From Naegleria gruberi (taxonomy: Eukaryota): DNA of 1,168 nucleotides. Position 1 is the first letter of the stretch; each line of letters opens with the position of its first letter. Below the pieces are notes generated by a model that saw only the letters and a list, made by a program, of their open reading frames with translations, ran no database searches and was not told the origin of the DNA. Shown here one piece after another: positions 1-1,168 of this stretch. The DNA is taken from the NCBI GenBank assembly GCA_000004985.1, contig GG739518.1; one strand, 5' to 3'. A program made the translations under genes and the position numbers.

Positions 1-180
1 GGAATACTTTTTCATGGTTCCATTCTTTTCTTCTTCAGCTCTCTTTAAGAGGGCCCTCTCTTGCATTTCCTTCCACTGGTTCATTTCTCTTTCATGTCTT
101 GATTCATTTTCCTCAATAATTTTTCTTCGTTCTTCCGATTCTGCAACATGACCTCCTTGAGCCCACGCCATTACACATCT
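1..180 (-). other. Charged Glu/Arg/Lys-rich, probably alpha-helical/coiled segment downstream of the LRRcap (continues past the window edge)
   Basis: Translation: [60 protein letters not shown]. The heptad-like spacing of hydrophobics within a highly charged stretch resembles the region after the LRRcap in DNAAF1 as I recall it. Confidence 0.5.
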
Positions 181-1062
181 TCTCTCATCCTTGGATACTG
201 GTTTATCATCCAGATATGTTAAATGTGGTAGTTTTGAAATAAAAGTCTTTCTATAATTCTTAGTTTTGCCTACAAAAGGATTTCCTTTAAGATAGAGCAC
301 AGTTAATTTAGGGAGTTGGGAAAGGATATCTACAATACCAGCATCATCTATCTCATTGCTTGATAAATCCAATACTGATAATCTATTTAATTTACATAAA
401 CTGGAAAGGCTGTCTATCGATGAAATTTTGTTATTACCCAAATTCAAAGTCTCCAATTGAGGGCAACATTCCAAATTTTCTACAACAGTAATTCTGTTAC
501 TGGAGAGGTTCAATGTTTGCAAATTCACTAAATTTTCCAAATTTTCAATTGTAGTGATGAGATTCTGGTTGAGATACAAACATCTGAGCTTATCCAAGTG
601 GCCAAGGTTTTCAATTTTAGTGATGGCATTACCCTCAAGCCATAAAGCTTTCAGTTCAGTGTATAATTCTAAATTTTCAATGACTCTGAAGCCTCGGTGA
701 TGAAGGAAGAGTTTATCATTCAAATAGGGTGTTTGGAACAAACTTTGGCGAGAGCACAAGTCCCTGATAACATCTACAGTTATTCTTGGAGTGTGGTACC
801 TTTTTTCGGCGCTTGAGGGAGAAGATGGTGATTTGTTAGTGTCTTCCATTGCTTGTTGTTTTTTAGGAGTGGAGGTTTGGGATGGATCTTCCCTTGTTTC
901 TGTTGTAGGTTGTGGGGTTGTTGTTGGTGTGGTTGTTATTTCAGTTTCAGAATCAATCTCCTCAATGATTATTTTACTTGATTTTGTATTAGACGTTGTT
1001 GATTCTTCATTATTTTCTGTTGAGGATGAGAGAGATCGAGCCCTAGAGAAGAAGGAGAGCAT
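1..1062 (-). CDS. Partial CDS (N-terminal 354 aa; continues beyond window start) for a leucine-rich-repeat protein resembling axonemal dynein assembly factor 1 (DNAAF1/LRRC50/ODA7 family)
   Basis: Hand translation of the reverse complement gives an uninterrupted 354-codon frame. It starts at ATG (+ 1062..1060) and runs to the window edge. The sequence is [14 protein letters not shown]...[12 protein letters not shown]...[126 protein letters not shown]...[119 protein letters not shown]... An in-frame TGA lies upstream at + 1131..1129, and there is no earlier in-frame ATG. The N-terminal conserved block (LNDxL(F/Y)LHxxGFxxIENLExYTxL..LWL..N.I.KIENL), the SDS22-like LRRs, the LRRcap, the 'AWAxGG' motif and the charged tail match my recollection of human DNAAF1 (…[53 protein letters not shown]… LKHLTYLDDRPV… CAEAWARGGYAAEKEER…). 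The family assignment is from memory, not from a database search. Confidence 0.8.
196..672 (-). repeat. Leucine-rich repeat domain (about 5-6 SDS22-type 22-aa LRRs plus C-terminal LRRcap) with a 66-nt periodicity visible at the DNA level
   Basis: Protein repeats are LxxLxxLxLxxNxIxxIENLxx (e.g. [17 protein letters not shown] / [17 protein letters not shown] / [17 protein letters not shown] / [17 protein letters not shown] / [20 protein letters not shown]), followed by [26 protein letters not shown] (LRRcap). On the + strand, the antisense of the '(I/V)ENL' codons recurs at 66-nt spacing. 'ccaaattttc' occurs at 471-480 and 537-546. 'ttttcaatt(g/t)tagtgatg' occurs at 542-560 and 608-626. 'ttttcaatg' occurs at 674-682. 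Confidence 0.8.
781..1062 (-). other. N-terminal low-complexity (Thr/Ser/Pro/Glu/Lys-rich, probably disordered) extension of the protein, about 95 aa
   Basis: Translation: [93 protein letters not shown]. It has no recognisable fold motifs. Composition is strongly biased and there are no hydrophobic stretches after the first few residues. Confidence 0.7.
901..937 (-). repeat. Imperfect ACA/ACC trinucleotide-like tract on the coding strand (+ strand reads tgttgtaggttgtggggttgttgttggtgtggttgtt) encoding [12 protein letters not shown]
   Basis: Direct inspection. The coding strand reads acaaccacaccaacaacaaccccacaacctacaaca, an A/C-only run of about 36 nt. It is a cryptic simple-sequence repeat inside the low-complexity region. 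Confidence 0.6.
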
Positions 1063-1168
1063 TTTTTTAGATGATAATTCAACTACCTGTTCCCAAGTTG
1101 TAGTGATATTTTTGCGCCAATAGACTGCTCACTGTAATCAACGACTTTGTATGTTGGATTATGAGCAG
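1063..1168 (-). other. Putative 5' untranslated leader of the LRR gene (no ATG anywhere in it; in-frame TGA 23 codons upstream of the start; A-rich 'aaaaaaATGc' initiation context)
   Basis: The reverse complement of + 1063..1168 contains no ATG triplet, so no uORFs. The reading frame of the CDS is closed by TGA at + 1131..1129. The start codon is preceded by an A6 run, typical of AT-rich eukaryotic initiation contexts. Confidence 0.55.

Follow-up and report, generated by a model that had tools for sequence, protein, structure and literature searches.

The window, by which we mean the whole stretch of 1,168 nt analyzed here in full (approximately 36% GC), carries one gene on its minus strand. 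We conclude that this gene is almost certainly the first 354 codons of an intronless orthologue of the axonemal dynein assembly factor DNAAF1 (also called LRRC50, and ODA7 in Chlamydomonas), and that the window comes from the nuclear genome of a heterolobosean amoeboflagellate that belongs in or next to Naegleria. The reading frame runs from position 1062 to position 1, where the left end of the window cuts it, and its translation is free of stop codons over all 354 codons. The frame begins with an ATG at 1062-1060, and because the upstream continuation of the same frame (1063-1167) contains three stop codons, that ATG is the first possible start. Immediately before it on the gene strand is a run of seven A residues (window 1063-1069). 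The coding sequence in the window has a GC content of 0.37 and a third-position GC content (GC3) of 0.33, and the corresponding genes of Naegleria fowleri and Naegleria lovaniensis have a GC content of 0.40 to 0.41 and a GC3 of 0.37 to 0.39. The features are as follows, with the basis for each in parentheses.

1-1062, minus strand: 5' part of the DNAAF1/ODA7 orthologue, 354 codons, approximately 60% of the gene, intronless (open frame; gap-free alignment to N. fowleri)
1060-1062, minus strand: start codon ATG (in-frame stops upstream; A-run and MLS as in both Naegleria species)
799-1059, minus strand: low-complexity N-terminal extension rich in Ser, Thr, Pro, and Glu, residues 2-88 (predicted local distance difference test score, pLDDT, under 50 in the greater part of residues 1-76; no homologue aligns)
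655-798, minus strand: DNAAF1-specific N-terminal block, residues 89-136, comprising a capping helix plus the solenoid's first beta-strand (alignment to Xenopus DNAAF1 and to the profile)
280-654, minus strand: six SDS22-type leucine-rich repeats (LRRs) of 22 to 25 residues each, residues 137-261 (LxxLxLxxNxI pattern; Pfam; model strands)
193-279, minus strand: LRR C-terminal cap, residues 262-290 (Pfam LRR_9; invariant residues; model helices)
1-192, minus strand: post-cap charged helix, residues 291-354, opening with the family motif (invariant residues; model; profile alignment)
1063-1168, minus strand: 5' untranslated region together with some of the promoter or intergenic DNA, 106 nt (stops in all three gene-strand frames)

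The identity of the gene is supported by protein similarity. Searched against 5.8 billion proteins, the window protein gave 504 matches, and our statements about named families cover the best 120 of these. The top match was an N. fowleri protein, P0001 (8e-127, 75% identity), followed by the N. lovaniensis protein P0002 (72%), which UniRef names "Dynein assembly factor 1, axonemal," and then by the ENA protein P0003 (67%), a Willaertia magna protein (64%), and an Acrasis kona "dynein assembly factor DNAAF1" (54%). After these came approximately 100 named DNAAF1, DAAF1, or ODA7 proteins at 229 to 250 bits from amphibians, birds, fish, molluscs, a rotifer, chytrids, and Andalucia ("ODA7"). Every functional name among the best 120 was dynein (axonemal) assembly factor 1, DAAF1, or ODA7 (229 to 441 bits), the other entries being "hypothetical," "unnamed," and one Xenopus laevis "Chc1-b-prov," and LRR_4/LRR_9 domains were present in 120 of 120. 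No protein named SDS22/PPP1R7, DRC3, LRRC6, LRRC56, or LC1 was found in that set. The initial annotation, made from the letters alone, had named the gene as DNAAF1/ODA7, and the search supports that identity.

Pairwise and profile comparisons gave the same assignment and extended it beyond the repeats. BLASTP against Xenopus tropicalis DNAAF1 scored 227 bits at 44% identity over residues 83-352, an interval that spans both the N-terminal block and the AW..GG motif. An alignment of 25 diverse DNAAF1 proteins (A1) was converted to a profile, and a second DNAAF1 profile was built from the members of A1 minus every heterolobosean sequence and used to score the window. Against the heterolobosean-free profile, the window reached 403 bits over a single stretch (profile positions 7-290). 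Moreover, the "LNDxLYLHxxGF" block, which according to the initial annotation would stay unaligned if the best matches belonged to another family, aligned both to Xenopus DNAAF1 and to that profile. No datum contradicts the family assignment.

The architecture of the encoded protein was examined part by part, with conservation counted over 29 sequences (the window protein and 28 orthologues) and with an AlphaFold2 model generated from the same 29-sequence alignment. The model has a mean pLDDT of 82, rising to 94 to 98 for residues 90-340, and contains seven parallel strands (at residues 117, 139, 161, 183, 205, 230, and 255), the helices of the cap, and a long helix at residues 291-346. The N-terminal tail (residues 1-88) is not conserved and is probably disordered, the latter because predicted pLDDT falls below 50 across most of residues 1-76; the best matches cover 73 to 77% of the query, and none aligns to the tail. 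Next comes the N-terminal block, where the family pattern PRxT..L..LC..Q.L..TPYLNDxLYLHxKGF precedes the repeats and is present in the window, with L114, N115, D116, and L120 invariant. The model places a helix at residues 96-105 and a strand at 117-119 of that block (pLDDT above 94). Repeats of the form LxxLxLxxNxI begin at residues 137, 159, 181, 203, 228, and 253, and each is modeled with one strand (at 139, 161, 183, 205, 230, and 255; pLDDT 96 to 98). Pfam recognizes the array as LRR_4 (4.9e-26), LRR_9 (1e-24), and LRR_8 (1.6e-15), the LRR_9 match spanning residues 181-295 and profile positions 44-156 of 175.

Beyond the repeats, the cap is modeled as helices at residues 262-266 and 270-277, and its residues Y270, R271, L281, L284, D285, and P288 are invariant. 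The family motif ERxCxxAWxxGGxxAExxER is present in the window and opens the charged helix that follows; within it, CVMAWAQGG occupies residues 296-304 (nt 151-177), A299, G304, E308, and E311 are the same in every sequence, and W300 and G303 in nearly every one. After the cap the model shows a single helix (residues 291-346, pLDDT approximately 98), which is likely a coiled coil. In total, 33 columns are invariant over the 29 sequences, C161 among them, and the sole visible departure from the invariant columns of A1 is Arg123, a conservative replacement for the Lys of "LHxKGF." The initial annotation had read a 354-codon minus-strand frame with an N-terminal block, SDS22-type LRRs, a cap, CVMAWAQGG, and a charged tail; the frame was borne out, with no stop in 1-1062 and its ATG at 1062-1060, and every one of the parts was located.

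The gene also indicates where the DNA came from. We compared the window with the DNAAF1 loci of N. lovaniensis (L005, encoding P0002) and N. fowleri (L006, encoding P0001), and a neighbor-joining tree was calculated from a 253-residue core with 200 bootstraps and with the paralogous families (LRRC6, LRRC56, DRC3, SDS22, and LC1) left out. In the tree, the window is sister to N. fowleri plus N. lovaniensis (165 of 200 bootstraps), and outside that clade come, in turn, P0003, Willaertia, and Acrasis and its relatives, such that the window is nested in Heterolobosea. Over approximately 720 nt, the window is 68% identical in DNA to the N. fowleri gene and 68% identical to the N. lovaniensis gene. 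In the protein core, N. fowleri shares 93% identity with N. lovaniensis, whereas the window shares 74 to 75% with either, and thus it represents a clearly separate lineage. Judged from these sequence comparisons, the window lineage is neither N. fowleri nor N. lovaniensis but a distinct heterolobosean of the Naegleria clade. Residues 93-352 align to residues 144-403 of the 585-residue N. fowleri protein without a gap, and we conclude that this part of the gene contains no intron. The orthologous genes are likewise single uninterrupted open reading frames (ORFs), of 550 codons in N. lovaniensis and 585 codons in N. fowleri.

We note that the translation starts are also alike. Seven or eight A residues directly before the ATG, together with an opening "MLS" (ATG-CTx-AGC/TCC), occur in the window, at 3993-4000 of L005, and at 3994-4000 of L006. 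The combination may be a translation-start context of Naegleria. The initial annotation had held that the DNA was eukaryotic rather than prokaryotic, and the nesting in Heterolobosea, the 68% DNA identity, and the common A-run and MLS support that view.

Whether the gene might belong to another family of LRR proteins is a fair question, as an LRR solenoid followed by a cap is common to SDS22/PPP1R7, DRC3/LRRC48, LRRC6/DNAAF11, LRRC56/DNAAF12, and LC1. Indeed, the closest solved structures come from these families: Foldseek comparison of the model with PDB returned SDS22 (1.3e-13), DRC3, and LC1 as the nearest folds, and the window scored 146 bits against PPP1R7 chains, 71 to 81 bits against DRC3, and 62 bits against LC1, with Roco and internalin LRR domains at 60 to 105 bits. 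The model fits an SDS22-type solenoid with a cap, but fold comparison cannot tell the LRR-cap families apart; the sequence evidence does. The SDS22 alignment is confined to residues 126-285, where it falls in three overlapping repeat registers, whereas DNAAF1 proteins reach 227 to 441 bits over residues 83-352. Alignment in several registers points to a longer repeat array in SDS22 than the six or seven repeats of the window. Similarly, while the window scores 403 bits with the heterolobosean-free DNAAF1 profile, human SDS22/PPP1R7 reaches 178 bits with the full A1 profile, divided among three overlapping stretches confined to the LRRs, and DRC3 reaches 82 to 89 bits. When the flanking blocks were compared with PDB separately, the N-terminal block (residues 86-136) returned chance-level matches only, and the post-cap piece (residues 283-354) returned zero matches even at E values up to 10. 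Membership in one of these other families, whose names are absent from the best 120 matches, is very unlikely. According to the initial annotation, paralogues or bacterial LRR proteins outscoring DNAAF1 would have refuted its reading, and neither did so: PPP1R7 and DRC3 reached 146 and 81 bits against 227 for Xenopus DNAAF1, and internalins (60 to 96 bits) and prokaryotic loci (33 to 37% identity) also fell below DNAAF1.

Two further explanations accept the resemblance to DNAAF1 and differ in what they make of it. A decaying or otherwise nonfunctional copy, whether a pseudogene or an assembly fragment, might be suspected when just 60% of the gene is in view and the contig is very short. All 354 of the 354 codons are open, however, invariant family residues are matched at every position checked save the Lys-to-Arg change at 123, and the AlphaFold model is very confident. 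Moreover, identity to N. fowleri is higher in protein (75%) than in DNA (68%), as expected under purifying selection, and decay seems highly improbable. The other explanation is that a bacterium, an archaeon, or a giant virus acquired a DNAAF1-like gene from a eukaryote by horizontal transfer. The window is short (1,168 nt), and LRR proteins are common in prokaryotes: four prokaryotic loci were matched at 33 to 37% identity, in a Saprospiraceae metagenome-assembled genome (MAG), two Asgard MAGs, and a Clostridiales MAG. The match to these loci lies mainly in the LRRs, however, and the sole Asgard ORF inspected (on L003) is a plain 276-residue LRR protein that has neither the DNAAF1 N-terminal block nor AW..GG. 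A protein-guided scan of 2.9 million viral contigs (IMG/VR) found no relative of the window protein, and an exact 30-mer (window 162-191) was absent from GTDB species genomes, IMG/VR, and JGI metagenomes. Furthermore, the protein is placed inside Heterolobosea, as the species tree predicts, its start context has the A-run seen in Naegleria, and, like the Naegleria orthologues, it has a long disordered, low-complexity N-terminal tail. Finally, no client of a dynein-arm assembly factor is known from cells that lack axonemes. We give horizontal transfer next to no chance and retain the heterolobosean DNAAF1 orthologue as our interpretation.

Some points nonetheless qualify that interpretation. 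The mechanism of DNAAF1 is poorly defined even in model organisms, and no structure has been solved for LRRC6/DNAAF11 or LRRC56/DNAAF12 (PMC12633730). For LRRC6 and LRRC56, the sole ground for exclusion is their absence from the best 120 matches. LRRC6 has a CS/p23 domain after its LRRs, and the visible post-cap region of the window is, by profile and model, a DNAAF1-type helix, not a CS domain. Homologues extend approximately 180 to 230 residues beyond the point at which the window cuts the frame; roughly the last 180 to 230 codons lie outside the window. Finally, no Naegleria gruberi protein was present among the search matches.

What the protein does can be proposed from its orthologues. 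Naegleria builds flagella de novo when amoebae differentiate into flagellates. From orthology and the literature, we infer that the window protein has a role in the cytoplasmic preassembly of axonemal dynein arms; it would be active in the cytoplasm at the time of flagellar assembly, which in Naegleria would be during the amoeba-to-flagellate switch. The concave face of the LRR solenoid could provide a protein-binding scaffold, and that scaffold would stabilize axonemal dynein heavy chains and aid their joining to intermediate chains, giving rise to outer-arm and some inner-arm complexes. HSP90 and an R2TP-like RUVBL1/2 complex would probably be its partners in a chaperone relay, and intraflagellar transport might take over via IFT88. 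A role in dynein-arm preassembly is known from work on Chlamydomonas, zebrafish, and humans (PMC12633730, PMC4361367, PMC5886296). ODA7 has been assigned to the stage at which heavy chains fold and assemble together with intermediate chains (PMC4361367). Loss of DNAAF1/ODA7 affects the stability of dynein heavy chains, and the protein may act early, alongside DNAAF7 (PMC12633730). IFT88 is a binding partner of human DNAAF1, which also associates with RUVBL1/2, HSP90, and SUGT1, and a model has been proposed in which an R2TP-like assembly module is coupled to intraflagellar transport (PMC5886296).

The remaining 106 nt of the window (1063-1168) gave no Rfam or tRNA match, and except for the A-run they showed no DNA similarity to the 330- to 470-nt intergenic regions of N. 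fowleri and N. lovaniensis. We looked for the start or end of a neighboring gene in this piece and rejected both candidates, as the piece is too short and neither resembles the Naegleria neighbor genes. On the plus strand, an ATG at 1151 opens six codons (MLDYEQ) that run to the end of the window (1151-1168). On the minus strand, a 29-codon frame enters from the right edge (1080-1168) and ends at a TGA (1082-1080), 17 nt before the DNAAF1 ATG. Within the gene, positions 801-1000 have a GC skew of +0.45 and an AT skew of -0.51 (plus strand) because the minus strand there encodes low-complexity sequence rich in Thr, Pro, Ser, and Glu. A plus-strand ORF of 110 residues (791-1123) was rejected as a gene; it has no Pfam match and lies opposite the skewed low-complexity coding sequence.

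Other observations concern DNA and protein outside the window. In both N. lovaniensis and N. fowleri, the upstream neighbor of DNAAF1 is a divergent protein of approximately 1,000 to 1,100 residues with a weak Zn_clus match (L005 538-3531; L006 366-3668), and the downstream neighbor, on the same strand, is a protein of approximately 520 to 530 residues without a Pfam family (L005 5768-7369; L006 5894-7447). Both neighbors are conserved between the two species, and the window is too short to show synteny. Past the point where the window ends, heterolobosean DNAAF1 proteins have in common a C-terminal region, "I/YWN..R..LL...R...FNF.KV" followed by "CR.EYSR," which carries no Pfam annotation (approximately residues 475-585 of P0001, 440-550 of P0002, 355-443 of P0004, and 505-607 of P0006). 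That region is unlike the vertebrate C terminus and may be a lineage-specific domain. Two Asgard MAG contigs (Promethearchaeota/Promethearchaeia; L003 4902-5732, plus strand, and L002 5001-5579) encode short proteins with SDS22-type 22-residue LRRs, and their repeats, of the form "NxIxxIEnLexLxnL," are 33 to 35% identical to the DNAAF1 repeat region. The best metagenome relatives found by protein-guided search were 52 to 55% identical. In one metagenome assembly, JAESGV01, two contigs (L007 3001-3756 and L008 3-641) each encode a DNAAF1-like protein at 52% identity, and we conclude that eukaryotic (protist) contigs are present in that metagenome record.

DNAAF1/ODA7 is well known and widely conserved in organisms with motile cilia, and the copy in the window is entirely typical. 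The biological weight of the locus is accordingly small, and its use lies mainly in curation: the window should be flagged as heterolobosean DNA if it is filed in a bacterial, archaeal, or viral bin. The source material contained a Naegleria-like amoeboflagellate other than N. fowleri and N. lovaniensis, a point that could be relevant to work surveying free-living amoebae. If the source is a species that has been sequenced, then the gene is already known. Perhaps, though we regard it as rather doubtful, the window is a first glimpse of an unsequenced amoeboflagellate of the Naegleria clade whose DNAAF1 core has diverged by approximately 25% from those of N. fowleri and N. lovaniensis. In that case the window may have entered an environmental or "prokaryotic" assembly as stray eukaryotic DNA, and the gene could serve to mark misbinning or the presence of a free-living amoeba in the sample.

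Among known systems, the nearest are the DNAAF1 genes of N. fowleri and N. lovaniensis, which are like the window in being intronless, in the A-run, and in the MLS start. They differ in their N-terminal tails, which are 143 and approximately 110 residues long, respectively, compared to 92 in the window, and which are unrelated in sequence. DNAAF1/LRRC50/ODA7 proteins in general have the same visible order as the window protein: a variable tail, the TPYLNDxLYLHxKGF block, six LRRs, the cap, ERxCxxAWxxGGxxAExxER, and a charged helix. Human DNAAF1 is described as having six LRRs, a coiled coil, and a Pro-rich region (PMC5886296). The DNAAF1 proteins of animals and chytrids are 44 to 51% identical to the window protein, and almost all orthologues have Lys where the window has Arg123; the window's tail (residues 1-88) is species specific and unalignable to theirs. 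SDS22/PPP1R7 has the same 22-residue LRR type and cap and is the best solved-structure match by sequence and fold, but its array is longer and lacks both DNAAF1 flanking blocks, and the window protein is not a member of that family. SDS22/PPP1R7 regulates protein phosphatase 1 rather than dynein assembly. DRC3/LRRC48 and LC1 (DNAL1), both axonemal, resemble the window protein in having an LRR solenoid that ends in a cap and is followed by a helix, but they score far lower, and their role is a structural one within the axoneme rather than assembly in the cytoplasm.

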